This document shows positions 4,703 to 59,392 of a stretch of DNA of 64,000 nucleotides, piece by piece. The DNA is from Candidatus Moraniibacteriota bacterium (GTDB lineage Bacteria > Patescibacteriota > Minisyncoccia > Moranbacterales > UBA2206). How positions within the stretch are numbered: the first letter of the stretch is position 1; the number at the start of each line of letters is the position of its first letter. The position numbers and the translations under genes are program-made. Below the pieces are notes generated by a model. That model searched no databases. It was not told the DNA's origin and was given only the letters and a program-made list of their open reading frames with translations. The DNA is taken from NCBI GenBank assembly GCA_013334765.1, contig JAAXWW010000005.1, positions 28,350-92,349 on the forward strand, in the 5' to 3' direction.

Positions 4703-5764
4703 CTATTTCAAGCTGTAATATTCGCCTTCTTTTTTGAAAAAATCAGGATTGTTCAAGTTTATCATAACCGTGGTCTTTTTCACTTTCCTGACCTTGAACA
4801 CGCTTTGGAGTATCTTCTCTTTCTGAAGGGGCTCTTTGCTTTCAGCGAGGATGTTCCTGATGACATCCTTGATCGTGCCTTCATAATATCCCCATTCGCG
4901 AAGAGCGTATATGCCTCTTCCGATAAGGACGAAATTGTCATCCTTTATGAGCTCGTTATGGATGGTCTGCGGATGGGTCTTCTTCTTGCTGAGCCCGTGC
5001 TTGTCTATGGATTTCGCGATTTCGGTGAAATGAAGAGGCTTTCCTTCCTCTTTCAGGACCAGATTGATCTTCTCGCGGCTGCCTTTCGGATTGATATCGT
5101 TCCAATCATAGATCCCCCATTTTCCGAATTTGTTCTTCTTGACGCGAGCCAGGACTTTCATAAAACTGAACGCCTGCTCCTTGGAAAAACCAGGGAACTC
5201 TGCCGCTACTTTCTCGGAAAGATCCGATCCCTTGAGAGGAACCTTGCCTTTCTTGAGAATATCTTCCGCGACACGAGCGACATCCTTTGCCTGCTTAAAA
5301 GCGGAATCGGAAACCGCCCATGACTTCTCGATGAGATTCTTCTGAGAAACCGTTCTTATCCTTTTCGAACATTCGACTATGAACCTTATGGCATTCGATT
5401 CTTTCTTTCCGTCAGGATCGAGGATATCGACGGCTTCTTTTTCCTCGATTATACCATTATTTTTTTCTATTGCAAAAATGATCTTTTCTTCGGCCTTTTT
5501 GAAATTGTCGCTCACGGCGGATTTGGAAATCGTCCTCATGGCATCGCCCACGATCTGACGGACCCTTTCCCTGGTTATCCCGTAGTCTCCGCCGATATGT
5601 TCCAGTGTCTTGGCATCACGATCGCCGACCAGGCCGTATCTTTTCTTCAATATATCGGCAGCCCTCTTGGCAAGAGGGGCCAGCAGTTCCTCAACCAGGG
5701 CGAAAAACGCCGATCCGTTCTCCGGCTGCGCGCCTTCCGTCTTTTTGATATCCTTCGATTCCAT
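4703..5764 (-). CDS. Sigma-70 region-4-like plus C-terminal HARE-HTH-like DNA-binding protein (putative transcription regulator)
   Basis: AADILKKRYGLVGDRDAKTLEHIGGDYGITRERVRQI resembles sigma-70 region 4. The C-terminal PLHFTEIAKSIDKHGL...IGRGIYALREWGY resembles the RpoE-delta/HARE-HTH fold. Confidence 0.55.
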   Translation of the reverse strand: MESKDIKKTEGAQPENGSAFFALVEELLAPLAKRAADILKKRYGLVGDRDAKTLEHIGGDYGITRERVRQIVGDAMRTISKSAVSDNFKKAEEKIIFAIEKNNGIIEEKEAVDILDPDGKKESNAIRFIVECSKRIRTVSQKNLIEKSWAVSDSAFKQAKDVARVAEDILKKGKVPLKGSDLSEKVAAEFPGFSKEQAFSFMKVLARVKKNKFGKWGIYDWNDINPKGSREKINLVLKEEGKPLHFTEIAKSIDKHGLSKKKTHPQTIHNELIKDDNFVLIGRGIYALREWGYYEGTIKDVIRNILAESKEPLQKEKILQSVFKVRKVKKTTVMINLNNPDFFKKEGEYYSLK

Positions 5765-5933
5765 AATTTTTTCAGGACCTACGCTTTGGCATATGGCAAT
5801 CCGTCATGGGATTGGCACATGAAAATACGCAAGCCGCATATTCTAGGCTTAATATTTCTTATGAGATGTCAAGACATACTAGCACACATTCGTTTTATTT
5901 GTCAAGAGTATGTCGGTATGATATCCTTCGCCT

Positions 5934-7013
5934 ATGAAATATCTCCACGCTTTGAACAAGATAAACGGGCTGGGTCCGCAGAAGATGAGATTGCTTCTCG
6001 GCTTCTTCGGAAGCTATGAACGGGCATGGAAAGCGGACGTTTCCGAGCTCTCCCGAGTGAAACTGGGCGGATCGTTAGCAGAAAAGATTGGCATCGAACG
6101 AAAAAAGATCGATCCGGAGAACGAATGGGAAAAGCTCCTGCTGGAAAACATCATCCTGCTATCCCCGGACAGTCCCGATTATCCTGATCTTCTCAAGAAA
6201 ATCCACAATCCCCCGCATGCCATATATATGAGAGGCGCGACGAACCTCAATTCTTTTCACATGATTTCCGTGGTCGGCTCAAGGAACATGACAGCATACG
6301 GGCTGGACGCTGCCGCCAGGCTTTCCAAGGAACTCGCCGAGAGCGGGTTCTCCGTCGTGAGCGGACTGGCTCTCGGAATAGACGCGGCGGCGCACAAAGC
6401 CGCCCTTCAAGCATCCGGCCACACAGTGGCAGTGCTTGGAAGCGGAGTGGACGACATGAACATCTTTCCTCGCGCCAATTTCTCCCTGGCAAAAGAAATA
6501 ATCAGATCGGGCGGAGCAGTCATGAGCGATTATCCACCGGGAACGCCGGCAAGCAACACCACTTTCCCCGCCAGGAACAGGATCATCGCCGGATTATCGC
6601 TCGGCACCTTGGTCATCGAAGCGGCAGAAAAAAGCGGCGCTCTCATCACAGCGAAACATGCTCTCGAATTCAATCGGGAAGTCTTCTCCGTTCCAGGCAG
6701 CATATTTTCCCCCTATTCGATCGGGACCAACAAGCTCATCAAAAGGGGTGCCAAAATCGCCATGGATGTTGGCGACATACTGGAGGAATTCGAATTCAAG
6801 GATATCAGAAAAGACGCCCCCGCCGCGCAGAAAAATCCTGAAAACGAAGAGGAAAAAAGAATCCTTGACGCGCTTAGCATCGTTCCGCTTCACATTGACA
6901 ACCTCGGCAAATTGACTAGACTGGAAACTGCAACCCTTTCCTCGACGCTTTCGATGCTGGAAATAAAAGGCTGGATAAAGAACGTGGGAGGACAGAACTA
7001 TATAATCACGTAA
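5934..7013 (+). CDS. dprA: DNA processing protein A (DprA/Smf)
   Basis: The DprA Rossmann core motifs are VVGSRNMTAYGLDAA, SGLALGIDAAAHKAAL and AVLGSGVD. There is a C-terminal winged-helix tail. Confidence 0.85.
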   Translation: MKYLHALNKINGLGPQKMRLLLGFFGSYERAWKADVSELSRVKLGGSLAEKIGIERKKIDPENEWEKLLLENIILLSPDSPDYPDLLKKIHNPPHAIYMRGATNLNSFHMISVVGSRNMTAYGLDAAARLSKELAESGFSVVSGLALGIDAAAHKAALQASGHTVAVLGSGVDDMNIFPRANFSLAKEIIRSGGAVMSDYPPGTPASNTTFPARNRIIAGLSLGTLVIEAAEKSGALITAKHALEFNREVFSVPGSIFSPYSIGTNKLIKRGAKIAMDVGDILEEFEFKDIRKDAPAAQKNPENEEEKRILDALSIVPLHIDNLGKLTRLETATLSSTLSMLEIKGWIKNVGGQNYIIT

Positions 7014-14787: not shown

Positions 14788-14805
14788 AAAAAACCTCCCT
14801 TCTAT

Positions 14806-14888
14806 GTCATAGAACATGGAGCATGGAACATGAAGCAAGCCTTTGAATTCCTGCTACGCGCTATATGCTCCGTGTTCCATGTTCTATG
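14806..14888. promoter_or_regulatory. Long imperfect inverted repeat in the rpsU leader
   Basis: ATAGAACATGGAGCATGGAACATG ... TGCTCCGTGTTCCATGTTCTATG would form an extended stem-loop in the 5' UTR of rpsU on the minus strand. Confidence 0.35.
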
Positions 14889-14902
14889 CTTTGTGCTTTG
14901 TG

Positions 14903-15253
14903 CTATATGACTTCCGGATGGATGTTCTCCTGGAGCTTGGCTCCTCCGATCAGATGGAGATGGATATGCGGGACTTCCTGTCCGCCCCATTCGCCTACCC
15001 GAAATAACAGTTTATACCCTTTTGGGGAAATGTCAAAATCTTCGGCTATTTTCTTGGCAGTCAGAATGAGCTTTCCTGCCAGTTCCGTGTCCTCTTCGGT
15101 CAGGTTGCTGATGCTTTCGATATGCCTTTTCGGGATGATCAGGATATGCACCGGAGCCAACGGTCTCACATCTTTGAAAGCCAGAACGTCATCATCCTCA
15201 TAGACGACTGCTGCCGGCACTTCCTTGTTGATGATTTTGCAGAATATGCACAT
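14903..15253 (-). CDS. HIT-family (HinT-like) nucleotide hydrolase
   Basis: Contains the histidine triad HIHLHLIGG. The N-terminus CIFCKI is HinT-like. Confidence 0.85.
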   Translation of the reverse strand: MCIFCKIINKEVPAAVVYEDDDVLAFKDVRPLAPVHILIIPKRHIESISNLTEEDTELAGKLILTAKKIAEDFDISPKGYKLLFRVGEWGGQEVPHIHLHLIGGAKLQENIHPEVI

Positions 15254-44412: not shown

Positions 44413-44484
44413 TGGGATATTTGATATAATTAAATCACAATAAAATTATACATAATATTCTCAAATGCAACAATATTATGCATA

Positions 44485-44707
44485 CTATGCGAAAACACTT
44501 CGCATATGGAAGAGTTATTCAAAATGTCGCGCGCTACGCTTGCTCCATTTTGAATAACGTGCAGCTATGCGAAGGGGCTATGCGCAAAGAAAAAAGATTG
44601 TCTTTATCAATCGCGCGCGCCACTTCGTATAACTACCGCTATACGGCTGACGCCCAAATCCCGACTCCGCTCCGCTCCGTCGGGACTTCGCATAGCTGCA
44701 CGTTATA
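44485..44707. repeat. Inverted-repeat-rich non-coding element between xer and the DUF218 gene
   Basis: AATAACGTGCAGCTATGCGAAG (44553-44574) and CTTCGCATAGCTGCACGTTATA (44686-44707) match at 21 of 22 positions as an inverted repeat. Nested hairpins are TATGCGAA-AACAC-TTCGCATA (44485-44505) and TCCCGAC...GTCGGGA (44659-44685). The motif GCTATGCG recurs. Confidence 0.5.
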
Positions 44708-44729
44708 TGAAATTTCACCCCTCCTCACT

Positions 44730-45377
44730 ATGATAAATAAACAAACATTTGAATTAGCAAACAAGTTGTGGGATTACCACCACGTTAATCAATCTCTTGA
44801 AAAATCTGATTGCATTTTAGTTCTGGGTAGTCATGATTTGAGGGTCGCCGAAAGAGGCGCGGAATTATATCTTCGAGGATTGGCACCTATTATAATTTTT
44901 TCTGGTGGCCTTGGAAATTTTACAAAAGAAATTTGGGATGAGTCTGAAGCTGACAAGTTCACAACTATTGCTATGAATATGGGAGTTCCGCGTGATGCAA
45001 TTTTGATTGAGAATAAATCAACGAACACTGGCGAAAATATTTTGTTTACGCAAAAGTTGCTAAAGGAAAATGGCCTTGATCCGCAAAGTTTTATCGTTGT
45101 GCAAAAACCGTATATGGAAAGAAGGAGCTATGCGACATTCAAAAAACATTGGCCTGACAAAAAACTTGCGGTCACATCGCCCCAAATTTCTTTTGAAAAA
45201 TACTACAATGATGAAATTCCGCTTGAAAAGGTGATAAATATCATGGTCGGCGACTTACAAAGAATTAAAATATACCCAGAAAAAGGATTTCAGATTTTTC
45301 AAGAGATACCAAATGAAGTGTGGTCTGCATATGAACAACTTGTTAGTCTGGGGTACGACAAACATTTAGTGAAATAA
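44730..45377 (+). CDS. DUF218 (YdcF/ElyC/SanA-like) domain protein
   Basis: CILVLGSHD...YLRGLAPIIIFSGGLG is the DUF218 core. The start is taken at MINKQTF. The upstream 252 nt of the track ORF is the inverted-repeat element and is not protein-like. Confidence 0.7.
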   Translation: MINKQTFELANKLWDYHHVNQSLEKSDCILVLGSHDLRVAERGAELYLRGLAPIIIFSGGLGNFTKEIWDESEADKFTTIAMNMGVPRDAILIENKSTNTGENILFTQKLLKENGLDPQSFIVVQKPYMERRSYATFKKHWPDKKLAVTSPQISFEKYYNDEIPLEKVINIMVGDLQRIKIYPEKGFQIFQEIPNEVWSAYEQLVSLGYDKHLVK

Positions 45378-45678: not shown

Positions 45679-46509
45679 ATGAACAACACAAACAGCCACA
45701 TCGCCATCTTCGAAGGAAAATCCATCAGGAAAATCATCTATCAGAATGAGTGGTGGTTTTCGGTGGTTGATGTTTGCATGGTTCTTACTGGTAGTCCAGA
45801 CCCAGGGGCCTATTGGAGGAAGTTAAAACAACGGCTAATAGCCGAAGGAGGTGAAGTCGTGACATTTTGTCACGGGTTGAAATTGCCAGCTCCGGACGGT
45901 AAAATGAGGGAGACTGATTGCGCCAACACTGAAGGAATGTTCAGAATCATCCAATCAATCCCCTCGCCCAAAGCCGAGCCATTGAAGCGTTGGCTAGCTA
46001 AAGTCGGTTATGAGCGTATTCAAGAGGTAGAAAATCCCGAATTAGCAACAAAAAGAACCAGGATGCTTTACAAACTCAAGGGATATCCTGAAGACTGGAT
46101 CGAAAAACGAATGCGCGGTATCGCTATCCGGGAAGAACTGACTGAAGAATGGAATAAACGCGGAGCAGAAACCGATCGGGATTATGAGATTCTAACCGCA
46201 GAAATTTCACAGGCGACTTTTGGAATGAAGCCGAGTGAATACAAGAAACTAAAAGGATTGAAACGAGAGAATCTTCGCGATCATATGGACGACTTCGAAT
46301 TGATCCTTACCATGTTGGGCGAAAGAACTACTACTGAAATACATAAAACCAGGGATTCCAAGGGATTGCCGCGACTCAAAGATGATGCTCGCAGAGGCGG
46401 ATCAGTTGCCGGAACCGCCAGAAAACAAATCGAAAGACAAATAGGCAGACCGGTGGTTTCAAAAAACAATTTCTTGAAACAGAAAAACGACAAAGGATTG
46501 AAGAAATAA
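45679..46509 (+). CDS. DinD-like/Bro-N domain protein, paralogue 2
   Basis: IAIFEGKSIRKIIYQNEWWFSVVDVCMVL, AEPLKRWLAKVGYERIQE and KKLKGLKRENLRDHMDDFELILTMLGERTTTEI match the DinD family. It is collinear with paralogue 1. Confidence 0.75.
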   Translation: MNNTNSHIAIFEGKSIRKIIYQNEWWFSVVDVCMVLTGSPDPGAYWRKLKQRLIAEGGEVVTFCHGLKLPAPDGKMRETDCANTEGMFRIIQSIPSPKAEPLKRWLAKVGYERIQEVENPELATKRTRMLYKLKGYPEDWIEKRMRGIAIREELTEEWNKRGAETDRDYEILTAEISQATFGMKPSEYKKLKGLKRENLRDHMDDFELILTMLGERTTTEIHKTRDSKGLPRLKDDARRGGSVAGTARKQIERQIGRPVVSKNNFLKQKNDKGLKK

Positions 46510-46555: not shown

Positions 46556-47644
46556 TTAGTCTTCGATAATCTTCTTTATCAGCCCGGCGCACTTCTCCCA
46601 GCTGAATCTTTTGATATTCTCTTTGCCCTTCTGTATCATCTCATTGGCCAGCTTTTCGTCCGTTATGAGGGAAAGAGCTGCTCCGGCTATGAACTCAGGC
46701 TCGCGAGGATCGACTAGGAGCGCGCTTCCCTCGGCAACCTCAGTAAGAGACGATACGTTCGAAGAAACGACTGGCACGCCCGCATTCTGAGCCTCGAGGA
46801 TAGGAAGGCCGAAACCTTCATAGAAAGTCGGGAAAAGGAAGACTGACGCGCCTTCAAGCAGTTCCTGTTTCTTTTCGGCGTTCACGAATCCGGTCTCGAC
46901 TATTTCCGCCTTAAATTCGCTTTTTTCGATCTGTTTTTTTATATCCTCATATCCGTGTCCCGGACGGCCGATGAGCACGAGGCGATGAGGAATGCCATGC
47001 TTGGATTTCAATATTTCAAACGCCCTTATCATCCCCTCGATATTCTTCCGTTTCTCTATCCTGCCGATGAACAATAAATAAGGATCATTCTTATCATCTT
47101 TTGACTTTTTTCCGCCAACTGGCGGATTAACTTCTGACTTTTCTTCATATCCTTCATATATGACGCTTATCTTCTCTTTCGGGACTTCATAGATATTGGT
47201 CAGGTCTTTTCTCGTGCTTCTGGAAACGCTTATTATCTTTTTCGCCCACTGGCATGATTTCTTGATGGACATGCGCATATAGAAGCGCTCCCAGGGAGAA
47301 TAGGCTTCCGGCATCACTTCGAACTCGAGCCCATGGATCGTGACAACGGTGTTTTCAGGATGGATTATCGGAACAGTGTGAGCCGGAACGAACAAGGCGT
47401 CGACCGGATGGAGCATGAGCTCCAATGAAAGCCCGATCTGAGTCCAGAACCGGCTGAATCTTATCTTTTTCATCCTCCAATTGGATGGCAGCTCGAAATC
47501 AGGCATCTGTTTGCTTCTCAGATACAAAATGACCTGATGGTCATTCAGTTTTCCTGCAAGATGCCTTATGGTCCGATATGAATATTCCTCAATTCCCGTC
47601 CTCTGCTTCAAAAAAGCGCGCGAGCCGTCTATGCCTATTTTCAT
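46556..47644 (-). CDS. GT4-family glycosyltransferase
   Basis: FLFPTFYEGFGLPILEAQNAGVPVVSS is the E-x7-E motif. Confidence 0.85.
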   Translation of the reverse strand: MKIGIDGSRAFLKQRTGIEEYSYRTIRHLAGKLNDHQVILYLRSKQMPDFELPSNWRMKKIRFSRFWTQIGLSLELMLHPVDALFVPAHTVPIIHPENTVVTIHGLEFEVMPEAYSPWERFYMRMSIKKSCQWAKKIISVSRSTRKDLTNIYEVPKEKISVIYEGYEEKSEVNPPVGGKKSKDDKNDPYLLFIGRIEKRKNIEGMIRAFEILKSKHGIPHRLVLIGRPGHGYEDIKKQIEKSEFKAEIVETGFVNAEKKQELLEGASVFLFPTFYEGFGLPILEAQNAGVPVVSSNVSSLTEVAEGSALLVDPREPEFIAGAALSLITDEKLANEMIQKGKENIKRFSWEKCAGLIKKIIED

Positions 47645-47667
47645 GGGTGTTTTTGTTTTATGTATTT

Positions 47668-47788
47668 CTCTACGAATTACGAATTTTACGAAATTACGAA
47701 TTTTTTACTGAATGATAAAATAAAAATAACAAAAATAATTTTGCTAAGAAGATGTTCGTATATTCGTAATGATTCGTAGTTCGTAGAG
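47668..47788. repeat. Composite inverted-repeat element built from TACGAAT heptads around an AT-rich spacer
   Basis: The left arm CTCTACGAATTACGAATTTTACGAAATTACGAAT (47668-47701) faces the right arm, whose reverse complement is CTCTACGAACTACGAATCATTACGAATATACGAAC (47752-47788). They flank a 50-nt spacer of about 90% A/T. Confidence 0.6.
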
Positions 47789-47818
47789 ACCGTAGGAACC
47801 ATACATATACAGAAAGTA

Positions 47819-48826
47819 TTACTTACTCAGCATTATCGTTCTCTTGTATAGCTCAAGATTCTCAAGCGCGATTCCGATTCCTTTGATGACGCAGAACAGC
47901 GCTTCGTCCGCGACATAGCACGGAACACCGATGGTTTTGGTGATCAGCTGATCAAGGTTGCGAAGCAGCGCTCCGCCGCCGGATAGCACCATCCCCTTGT
48001 CCATTATGTCGGCAGCCAACTCTGGCGGAGTTTCCTGAAGGACTTTCTTGATAGCATTGATGACTTCGCGCAGTTCGTCTTGAATAGCTTCCGTAACTTC
48101 GTTGGATGATATCTTCACCGTGCGCGGCAACCCTCCCGTGAGGTCCCGGCCCCTGACTTCCATATAGTCTTCCTTCACTTGAGGAAGCGCTGAACCGATC
48201 TTTATCTTCACATCCTCCGCGGTCCTGTCCCCGATCGCTAGGCTGTATTTTCGCTTGATATAGTCCGCGATAGCCTGATCGATCTTGTTGCCGCCGATCC
48301 TGGCGCTGGTGGCGGAGACTATTCCGCCGAGGGATATTACTGCCACTTCGCTCGTTCCTCCACCGATATCGATGATCATGTTCCCGGCCGGATTATTGAT
48401 GGGAATTCCAGCTCCGATCGCTGCCAGAACAGGCTCGCGGACAACATAGGCGGATTTGGCTCCGGCACGGATCGCAGCGTCGATGACGGCGCGCCTCTCT
48501 GTCGAAGTCACTCCGACCGGAATAGATATCATGATTTCAGGCCTCACGAAACGGAACTTGCCGCTCACTTTATTGATGAAATATTTGAGCATGGCTTCGG
48601 TTATCTTGTAGTCAGCAATGACTCCGTCTCTCATCGGGCGGCTAGCCACGATGGAATCCGGCGTGCGCCCCAGCATTTCTTTGGCATCATTGCCCACTGC
48701 CAAAACCTTGTTTTCCAAAACAGAAATGGCCACCACTGACGGCTCATTCGACACTATCCCCTTCCCCGGAACATACACCAAGACATTGGCCGTCCCCAGA
48801 TCGATTCCGATTTTTCTTATCAGCAT
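47819..48826 (-). CDS. mreB: Rod-shape-determining actin homologue MreB
   Basis: IGIDLGTANVLVYV, the phosphate loops and DIGGGTSEVA are present. Confidence 0.9.
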   Translation of the reverse strand: MLIRKIGIDLGTANVLVYVPGKGIVSNEPSVVAISVLENKVLAVGNDAKEMLGRTPDSIVASRPMRDGVIADYKITEAMLKYFINKVSGKFRFVRPEIMISIPVGVTSTERRAVIDAAIRAGAKSAYVVREPVLAAIGAGIPINNPAGNMIIDIGGGTSEVAVISLGGIVSATSARIGGNKIDQAIADYIKRKYSLAIGDRTAEDVKIKIGSALPQVKEDYMEVRGRDLTGGLPRTVKISSNEVTEAIQDELREVINAIKKVLQETPPELAADIMDKGMVLSGGGALLRNLDQLITKTIGVPCYVADEALFCVIKGIGIALENLELYKRTIMLSK

Positions 48827-49521: not shown

Positions 49522-49583
49522 ATGATCCTGATTTATAGGAATTTGTTATTCGCATATTAGTAAAAATTCGTGTTTTGTGGGGA

Positions 49584-55764: not shown

Positions 55765-55824
55765 TTCAGTTGGATTTCATATTATAGATATCATTATAGC
55801 ACAATGCTTTCGCCAACAAAAAAA

Positions 55825-55844
55825 TTACGTAACTAATTACGTAA
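55825..55844. promoter_or_regulatory. Two TTACGTAA palindromic octamers 12 bp apart, upstream of the 54940-55764 gene
   Basis: AATTACGTAACTAATTACGTAATT is related to the TACGAAT heptads at 47668-47788. Confidence 0.3.
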
Positions 55845-55878
55845 TTCTTGGATATTCTTTCGTGGTTTTGAATGCATT

Positions 55879-55998
55879 GTTCCCAGCATTGTCCTACTCT
55901 TCCCCCGCCTGAGCGGGGATACCATCGGTGCTGATAAGCTTAACGGCCGAGTTCGGTATGGGATCGGGTGTTTCCTTATCGCTAGAAACACTGGGAAC
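55879..55998 (-). rRNA. rrf: 5S ribosomal RNA
   Basis: The reverse complement reads TTCCCAGTG...CCCGATCCCATACCGAACTCGGCCGTTAAGC...CACCGATGGTATCCCCG...GGGGAAGAGTAGGACAATGCTGGGAA with helix I pairing. The ends are approximate. Confidence 0.85.
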
Positions 55999-56239
55999 GA
56001 TACATTCAAAAAGTGCTTAGAATGCCTTGATCACAGGAGAGAAAAACATGAATGATGCAATGGCAATCAGGATAACAAAAAACACGGCTGATATGAACTT
56101 CAAATTATCAGTATACCTTTTCATAAGTGACTTTTTTAGTAACTGTTAACTGCTAACCGAATCATACCATATATCATGAAACACCGCACATGAGACTTGC
56201 GCCTCATATAAAGTGCTCCACGTTATATGGAAAATAAGA

Positions 56240-59392
<3,153 letters not shown>

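Follow-up and report, generated by a model that had tools for sequence, protein, structure and literature searches.

Short repeated sequences between genes have been described for several bacterial lineages. Repetitive extragenic palindromic (REP) units and their relatives BIME and REPIN are known from Enterobacteria and Pseudomonas, the Correia/NEMIS elements of Neisseria stand next to ERIC, RUP and BOX among the MITEs (miniature transposable elements with inverted repeats), and palindromic elements have been found in Rickettsia. A further class is formed by arrays of heptamers: direct repeats of TAACTGA lie close to start codons in Beggiatoaceae, Cyanobacteria and Bacteroidetes and have been proposed to act as translational signals in the Beggiatoaceae, where they are strict tandem heptamers and nearly always direct, with 169 direct sets as compared to 1 inverted set in BOGUAY (PMC4679880). 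Here, we analysed a 64,000-nt stretch (hereafter the window) of contig JAAXWW010000005.1 from a Candidatus Moraniibacteriota bacterium, in which an inverted repeat of about 120 bp at positions 47668-47788 separates mreB from a gene coding for a GT4 glycosyltransferase. We are nearly certain that this repeat belongs, as one copy among others, to a family of repeats dispersed between the genes of Parcubacteria-type bacteria of the candidate phyla radiation (CPR), and this family is apparently undescribed so far: no bacterial repeat was found in the open-access literature for TACGAAT/ATTCGTA in all 14 rotations, nor any report of palindromic elements or MITEs in CPR bacteria.

The left arm of the repeat (47668..47701, plus strand) consists of the trinucleotide CTC followed by four TACGAA hexamers, which start at positions 47671, 47678, 47687 and 47695. 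Its outer CTC end points towards the start of the GT4 gene and, on the minus strand, which corresponds to the mRNA, it reads ...TTCGTAaTTCGTAGAG. The right arm (47752..47788, plus strand) contains four TTCGTA hexamers with starts at 47755, 47763, 47773 and 47780 and closes with GAG at 47786-47788, its outer end being directed towards the mreB stop codon at a distance of 30 nt. Between the two arms lies a spacer, or loop, of 50 nt (47702..47751), which has an A+T content of 84% and is not conserved across the repeat family. Eight of the 21 TACGAA hexamers in the window are located between positions 47671 and 47785, four on each strand and facing each other (Poisson P ~3e-18 for eight hexamers in 120 bp at the background rate of the window). 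The heptamer TACGAAT occurs seven times in the window as compared to 7.15 times expected by chance, and the signal therefore lies in the clustering and orientation of the units and not in the frequency of the word. Counting such clusters had been suggested in an earlier note on this DNA, which was made from the sequence alone; within the window, the clustering of the hexamer is evident, whereas the total of the heptamer is unremarkable. The sequence CTCTACGAA forms the outer end of both arms and this 9-mer has no further occurrence in the window. The arms agree in 30 of 37 aligned columns (~81%), and the hexamer spacings amount to 7/9/8 nt for the left and 8/10/7 nt for the right arm. A distance of 7 nt is found for the outer two hexamers alone, while the remaining ones are separated by 8-10 nt in the window copy and by up to 11 nt across the family, indicating that the invariant unit is the hexamer TACGAA and not a strict heptad. 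The four facing units per arm and the common outer start of the arms, which the earlier note had recognised, are thus borne out by the hexamer positions and by CTCTACGAA, as is its assignment of the neighbouring genes by Pfam matches. Its heptad unit has to be replaced by the hexamer; the arms are indeed similar, but at ~81% and not ~85% identity, and the 50-nt length of the spacer holds while its A+T content is lower than the ~90% given. A third array at 49549-49572 is weak and within chance expectation.

The arm sequence is not restricted to this locus. An exact pattern with 22 fixed bases, CTCTACGAAYTACGAA-N1-5-TACGAA, was matched in at least 120 metagenome stretches from contigs with 31-53% G+C, for which we estimate a chance expectation of about one match or fewer. 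No taxonomy is attached to the metagenome contigs, of which 9-14 kb surrounding each match were inspected, and all family counts given here and below are lower bounds among the matches listed. The family unit is an arm of ~36 nt composed of (T)CTC and four TACGAA hexamers spaced by 7, 9-11 and 8 nt; in the direction of the adjacent gene, it follows the consensus TTCGTA-NN-TTCGTA-N3-5-TTCGTA-R-TTCGTA-GAG-A. The outer two hexamers and the GAG were set by the collecting pattern, so their invariance is not independent evidence, while the spacing pattern is conserved in the module consensus and the terminal GAG is followed by an A in 114 of 134 modules. After deduplication, the clusters comprised 92 convergent pairs, in which the CTC/GAG ends face outward, no divergent pair, 64 clusters with a single orientation and eight compound clusters. 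Loop lengths vary between 0 and 76 nt, and the loop sequences have no relation to each other, not even where copies share one contig and have identical arms. Locus L311, for example, contains several copies with identical arms, including the bases between the hexamers, and differing loops, and arm variants are in general contig-specific and common to several copies on the same contig. The loop of the window copy resembles other loops of the family no better than shuffled sequences do (identity 0.61 versus a shuffled mean of 0.66). The MreB proteins of the hosts in which modules were found are only 51-76% identical to that of the window, and the family therefore reaches beyond the Moraniibacteriota. 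In loci related to the window, further TACGAA clusters follow murA, precede mreB as well as an L25-like gene (recognised by eye) and occur within the GT4 coding sequence. No match to the element was obtained with Rfam at the gathering score, and a permissive Rfam scan returned only generic long-hairpin miRNA precursor models, the best with 29 bits as compared to a cut-off of 119 bits.

The position of the modules relative to genes follows simple rules. Open reading frames (ORFs) in the fetched loci were called with a simple script of our own, which selects the longest ORFs by greedy choice. Only 22 of ~165 clusters lie inside ORFs, even though 87% of the DNA is coding. Among the pairs listed, 59 are found in tandem, six in divergent and six in convergent spacers, as compared to 615, 101 and 114 spacers of these types in the background. 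In tandem spacers, the upstream stop codon precedes the first hexamer by 1-7 nt and the next start codon follows the last hexamer after 8-10 nt; stop and start codons thus hug both ends of the element, which means that it usually constitutes the whole spacer between two co-directional genes. For 49 of the 134 modules listed, the ATG of an ORF of at least 60 codons is located 5-8 nt past the GAG, whereas each of the other offsets was seen one to five times. Where only one side of a listed pair carries the GAG, this is the start-codon side in 23 pairs and the stop side in eight. At least 61 genes start beside a module. They match 76 Pfam families, none of which is represented by more than two genes, and are heterogeneous housekeeping genes such as those for EF-Tu, GroES, SSB, L7/L12, L17, S13, S15, FtsA, MreC and tRNA synthetases. 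With such a diverse set of adjacent genes, the modules do not define a regulon. The window itself is poor in Shine-Dalgarno sites, since GGAG, GAGG or AGGA is present upstream of the first start codon in only five of 50 long ORFs, and its genome appears to initiate translation mainly without such a site. Most start codons in the window are preceded by A-rich stretches.

We next consider the junction at which the window copy resides. The upstream gene mreB (47819..48826, minus strand) matches Pfam MreB_Mbl with E = 2.9e-137 and has orthologues in loci L002-L081, and the downstream GT4 gene (46556..47644, minus strand) matches Glycos_transf_1 and Glyco_transf_4. From the mreB stop codon to the GT4 start codon, the spacer extends over 174 nt (47645-47818). 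The exact MreB protein is on record in one Logan-assembled metagenome contig only, and its closest relatives, with up to 92% identity, are encoded in metagenome-assembled genomes (MAGs) labelled Candidatus Moraniibacteriota. The order mreB followed by GT4 is kept in ~30 related MAG loci. In the nearest relatives L002, L005, L008, L012, L016, L017 and L025, the gap between the two genes is only 0-25 nt, and in L032, the mreB stop codon and the GT4 start codon overlap. From these short or absent gaps, we infer co-transcription of the two genes and a derived state for the 174-nt spacer in the window. TACGAA arrays are present at this junction in L007, L013 and L061, whereas L015, L019, L020, L023, L024, L026 and L028-L031 carry palindromes built from other heptads, the substitute units being inverted arrays of TTGAAAA-like, CATGTAA/CATGAAA, AGCTAAA, TTTAAAT or CGTAAC sequences. 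Overall, the TACGAA site is missing or replaced by other units in most of the ~35 orthologous mreB-GT4 junctions. The junction is not a clear hotspot for such arrays, as a strict period-7 criterion gave 4/31 as compared to 12/197 at other junctions, and we make no such claim. L061 (DYDH01000605.1) is a 1.1-kb contig binned as Herpetosiphon sp., which encodes an MreB protein 87% identical to that of the window next to its TACGAA palindrome; it is probably a mis-binned fragment of a Moraniibacteriota genome.

These observations bear directly on the proposal that the repeat is a multi-site operator, at which a dimeric or tetrameric transcription factor would bind both arms and regulate the GT4 gene. 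Inverted hexamer arrays upstream of GT4 are what such an operator would look like, and the absence of covariation in the bases between the hexamers (see below) fits recognition of the hexamers by a protein. A dedicated GT4 operator would, however, be conserved at the mreB-GT4 junction, and the comparison of orthologous regions that the earlier note had called for revealed that the element is missing from this very junction in the closest relatives. Furthermore, at least 61 housekeeping genes without relation to each other are preceded by this arm, and family members differ in the distance between their arms (0-76 nt), which is ill-suited to a fixed oligomer. The junction is also apparently operon-internal, with mreB and GT4 overlapping or abutting in some relatives. 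Scanning the minus strand of the spacer revealed no sigma-70-like promoter for GT4, which is weak evidence as the promoter rules of CPR bacteria are unknown. We therefore regard a local GT4 operator as highly improbable.

Instead, the overall explanation that we favour, with about as much confidence as doubt, is an intergenic palindrome family of the REP/BIME/REPIN or MITE type that is built from hexamer arrays. The patchy presence of the element at the ~35 orthologous mreB-GT4 junctions compared is counted as evidence for propagation. In addition, repeat families are interchangeable at a given junction: between the HIT-family gene and the gene for the S21-like protein, a CATGRAR-type heptad palindrome is present in the window and a TACGAA palindrome in L225, the S21-like proteins of the two being homologous (E = 3e-10). 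The left arm of the window copy is also identical in 34 of 36 positions to an insert that lies in frame within the C-terminal domain of the L031 GT4 protein (IPEI-STNYEFYETT...-SSAMLVD), and related inserts are found at the same site in the GT4 proteins of L021 and L199. According to the mechanism we propose, a trans-acting protein would recognise and propagate the arms, and the element would have been gained within the mreB-GT4 transcription unit, where the closest relatives have almost no spacer. The element would then be co-transcribed with both genes and could fold as an imperfect intercistronic hairpin of ~120 nt. An effect on GT4, if there is any, might be exerted via read-through, via RNA processing or stability, or via translational uncoupling. 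The data show that the element belongs to the family, how it is built and placed and that its distribution is patchy, whereas its way of spreading, its transcription together with the neighbouring genes and any influence on expression are inferred.

Relatives of the GT4 gene contain in-frame insertions at four to five hot spots, which are encoded by heptad arrays or small palindromes (L012 ~5510-5590; L013 ~5240-5290 and ~5650-5790; L018 ~5750-5870; L020 ~5680-5790; L028 ~2300-2410; L021/L031 ~6090-6180) and give rise to peptides such as NFQFPISNFQS and SKFKIQNSKF. With repeats of 7 nt, the reading frame is preserved only when their number is a multiple of three.

Several results weigh against the propagated palindrome family that we favour, in particular with regard to the hairpin. 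A long imperfect hairpin is predicted for either strand of the window copy, with -43 kcal/mol (z = -6.8) when folded as RNA and -26.7 kcal/mol (z = -7.5) when the same region is folded as DNA. Across the family, however, complementarity between the inter-hexamer bases of the two arms is 0.401 and thus equal to that of randomly re-paired arms (0.403 +/- 0.044); in a comparison of the two strands for a G-U asymmetry, folding is better for the gene-sense strand 19 times and for the antisense strand 29 times, which gives the sense strand no advantage; and ~40% of the arrays are single arms, which are unable to fold back. Based on these three tests, continuous base pairing is not what is conserved. 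Conservation extends instead to the hexamers, to the distances between them and to arm polarity, which suggests that a protein recognises the arm, either a propagating enzyme or an expression factor, and the hairpin would be a by-product of the convergent arrangement of the arms. The arm itself is also not a palindrome, in which it differs from a REP unit. No target-site duplication was seen by eye in the window, where the flanks read ...ATGTATTT before the CTC and ACCGTAGG after the GAG, or in the flanks of other family members, and no transposase or RAYT-like partner was identified, albeit in a small sample only. For a mobile element, the conservation of the module across hosts as divergent as those described above, the placement of an ATG 5-8 nt past the GAG and the preference of the GAG for the start-codon side are likewise awkward, and they hint at a function that the machinery of the host reads. 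Finally, the window copy is atypical: the GAG and the GT4 start codon are separated by 23 nt (47645..47667, AAATACATAAAACAAAAACACCC on the minus strand) and not by the usual 5-8 nt, so its geometry is looser than is typical for the family, and the mreB stop codon is 30 nt away from the arm.

A more specific version of mobility, which had been raised in the earlier note, is that of a classical MITE, in which the whole unit of ~120 bp would be a non-autonomous transposon with ~35-bp terminal inverted repeats that is mobilised by a DDE transposase. Among the three proposals of that note, this one comes nearest to our results, as the inward-facing repeats of the arms do recur like terminal inverted repeats: the conserved arm ends always point outward, as seen from the 92 convergent and the absent divergent pairs among the matches listed, solo arms exist and the presence of the element is patchy. 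Hexamers repeated in a subterminal position may also be likened to the arrays at which the transposases of some transposon families bind. However, the internal sequence is not common to the copies, even within one contig, and the search for further copies of the whole unit, which the earlier note had recommended, yielded no second copy in the 64-kb window and only unrelated loops in the family. To this adds the lack of a visible target-site duplication. Ten long-range arm pairs, 0.4-6 kb apart, were found, and no transposase was recognised between the arms of the eight that were inspected; the N-termini of their intervening ORFs resemble ordinary genes such as those for S4 and L10, as judged by eye and without a family search in this small sample. 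A classical MITE is therefore, in our view, improbable.

Alternatively, the TACGAA arrays might be cistron-boundary signals, that is, sites at which a conserved nucleic-acid-binding factor of CPR bacteria acts where genes start and end. This factor could, for example, be an RNA binder, either ribosome-associated or of the OB-fold/cold-shock type, or a roadblock bound to DNA, and the start-side arm would provide a GAG(A)-N5-8-ATG initiation context. We consider this as possible, although only as a tentative second choice. The ATG peak just past the GAG and the retention of the GAG mainly on the start side are readily accounted for in this way, as are the conservation of the hexamers and their spacing while the intervening bases vary freely and without covariation, the frequent single arms and the wide span of hosts. 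The scarcity of Shine-Dalgarno sites in the window provides a parallel to the TAACTGA arrays of the Beggiatoaceae (PMC4679880). On the other hand, the arrays are patchy at orthologous junctions, where other heptad families occupy the same position, pairs in convergent and divergent spacers occur in proportion to the background, single arrays in tandem spacers have no orientation bias (14 versus 14) and arrays are also found in frame within coding sequence. The GAG of the window copy lies outside the typical range from its ATG, and no candidate factor was identified. One might speculate further that the TACGAA arrays and the substitute heptad arrays together form a cistron-boundary code, which may be placed at the stop/start junctions of operons in Parcubacteria-type CPR genomes that largely lack Shine-Dalgarno sites and which a conserved reader would use to set initiation, re-initiation or RNA processing; we think of this as an unlikely, if attractive, extension.

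A stable hairpin that starts 30 nt past the mreB stop codon could also be an intrinsic or bidirectional terminator of mreB, and six family pairs are indeed located in convergent spacers. Yet the stem is not G+C-rich, no T-run or U-tract follows either arm, terminator scans reported nothing, the ATG of the next gene is located within 5-8 nt of most family members, and canonical-looking terminators are present elsewhere in the genome, for instance after the 5S rRNA gene. Termination is thus a very improbable function. The hairpin after the 5S rRNA gene (55881-55995) involves a pair of TTACGTAA copies at 55825-55844, to which the earlier note had drawn attention. The pair is real, with two copies found as compared to 0.24 expected, and on the minus strand of 55823-55851, an 11-bp stem with a 4-nt loop is followed by U7, starting 37 nt past the 5S rRNA. 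This looks like the intrinsic terminator of the rRNA operon. The family consensus offers no link between the TTACGTAA pair and the TACGAA module, and a factor common to both, as envisaged in the earlier note, is accordingly unsupported.

The last proposal was that of an unwinding element flanked by iterons, which we treat together with a replication origin and for which an A+T-rich spacer between repeated units would speak. The cumulative GC skew, however, is monotonic across the window and has no switch at the element, DnaA-box-like words occur at chance level with none within 2.5 kb of the element, and no replication gene is present among the scanned neighbouring genes. Moreover, many copies exist in diverse contigs and some of the loops are as short as 0-10 nt. 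The probability of an origin at this site is negligible.

Additional repeats were noted in the window and in other loci. A second element (14805..14905, minus strand) shares the architecture of the first and is built from CAYRRAR heptads in seven copies, a 25-nt spacer and four inverted copies: on the minus strand, the units CATATAG CACAAAG CACAAAG CATAGAA CATGGAA CACGGAG CATATAG are followed, after the spacer, by CTTCATG TTCCATG CTCCATG TTCTATG. It is located between the HIT-family gene and the GGGAGG ribosome-binding site of the S21-like gene and consists of strict 7-nt units. In the Moraniibacteriota-like loci L002-L045 and the window (386 kb in total), we counted 79 tandem arrays with period 7 as compared to 0-7 at each of the periods 5, 6 and 8-12, and in other CPR loci (L046-L081), 21 as compared to at most three at other periods. 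The period-7 units are diverse and many of them are AATT-rich. Perfect (TACGAAT)n arrays are present in 116 stretches of phage-like contigs with 41-65% G+C (L082-L197; examples are L126, L113, L132, L107/L117 and L125). Many of these form inverted pairs followed by a ribosome-binding site, and they mostly fill very short spacers between co-directional ORFs; L126 has eight arrays in 9.9 kb and encodes a terminase similar to that of a Sinorhizobium phage. The viral pairs are both convergent and divergent, unlike those of the CPR set. Within the window, a 28-nt inverted repeat (44547-44574 / 44686-44713), 89% complementary and with 111 nt between its halves, lies in the 5' part of a DUF218 ORF (44478-45377). 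This stretch has a lower G+C content (0.41) and adjoins a gene with a BRO-N domain (45679-46509), and it may be a mobile or phage-derived patch. The 23S rRNA match (56237-59382, minus strand) spans 3146 nt as compared to the 2925 positions of the model and contains a 25-nt inverted repeat (58051-58075 / 58129-58153); the excess may be an expansion or insertion as reported for CPR rRNA genes. No 16S gene was found within the 64-kb window.

CPR bacteria, or Patescibacteria, are uncultivated and, to our knowledge, almost nothing is known about how their gene expression is organised. A sequence-conserved module that is placed with nucleotide precision at the stop/start junctions of housekeeping genes in numerous lineages provides a concrete handle on this question. 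If the module is mobile, it would testify to the active spread of repeats in extremely reduced genomes, including the in-frame invasion of proteins as in Rickettsia. If it is a boundary signal, Parcubacteria-type CPR bacteria would possess a common and previously unrecognised cis-signal with an unknown reader. Through their excess of period-7 arrays, CPR genomes are also tied to the heptamer repeats of cyanobacteria and Beggiatoaceae, a problem that is still unsolved.

Among the described systems, the REP/BIME/REPIN sequences of Enterobacteria and Pseudomonas have much in common with the family reported here. Both are short, conserved, extragenic modules with many copies, which occur as inverted doublets able to form a hairpin and also commonly as singlets, and both are found in co-directional spacers near stop codons and are, in our case presumably, carried on mRNAs. 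A REP unit is an imperfect palindrome of 20-40 nt with a GTAG/CGTC head, whereas our arm has a CTC head, is not palindromic and consists of four arrayed hexamers. In addition, the distance between the arms is free (0-76 nt), the hosts are deeply divergent and the outer end lies 5-8 nt from the next ATG, all of which is unlike REP. The Correia/NEMIS elements of Neisseria and other MITEs, such as ERIC, RUP and BOX, are similar to the element of the window in that they are intergenic palindromes of 100-150 bp with inverted ends. They are co-transcribed, as we propose for our element, vary in their presence between strains and have context-dependent effects on expression. MITE copies have a common internal sequence and target-site duplications (TA for Correia), whereas only the arms are common to the copies described here and no duplication was seen. 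The Rickettsia palindromic elements (RPE) offer a parallel from another reduced genome, in which palindromes are found between genes and in frame within genes. However, RPEs are conserved over their full length of 100-150 bp, while the coding inserts observed here are single arms or heptad arrays, and both the lineage and the sequence are unrelated. The TAACTGA arrays and the STRR heptamers of cyanobacteria are likewise strongly intergenic arrays of 6-7-nt units, many of them near the start codons of genes that have no relation to each other, those for ribosomal proteins among them, and the genomes concerned contain few Shine-Dalgarno sites. In contrast to these direct heptamers, the hexamers described here are spaced by 7, 9-11 and 8 nt, end in a terminal CTC/GAG and are arranged in most copies as convergent inverted pairs.

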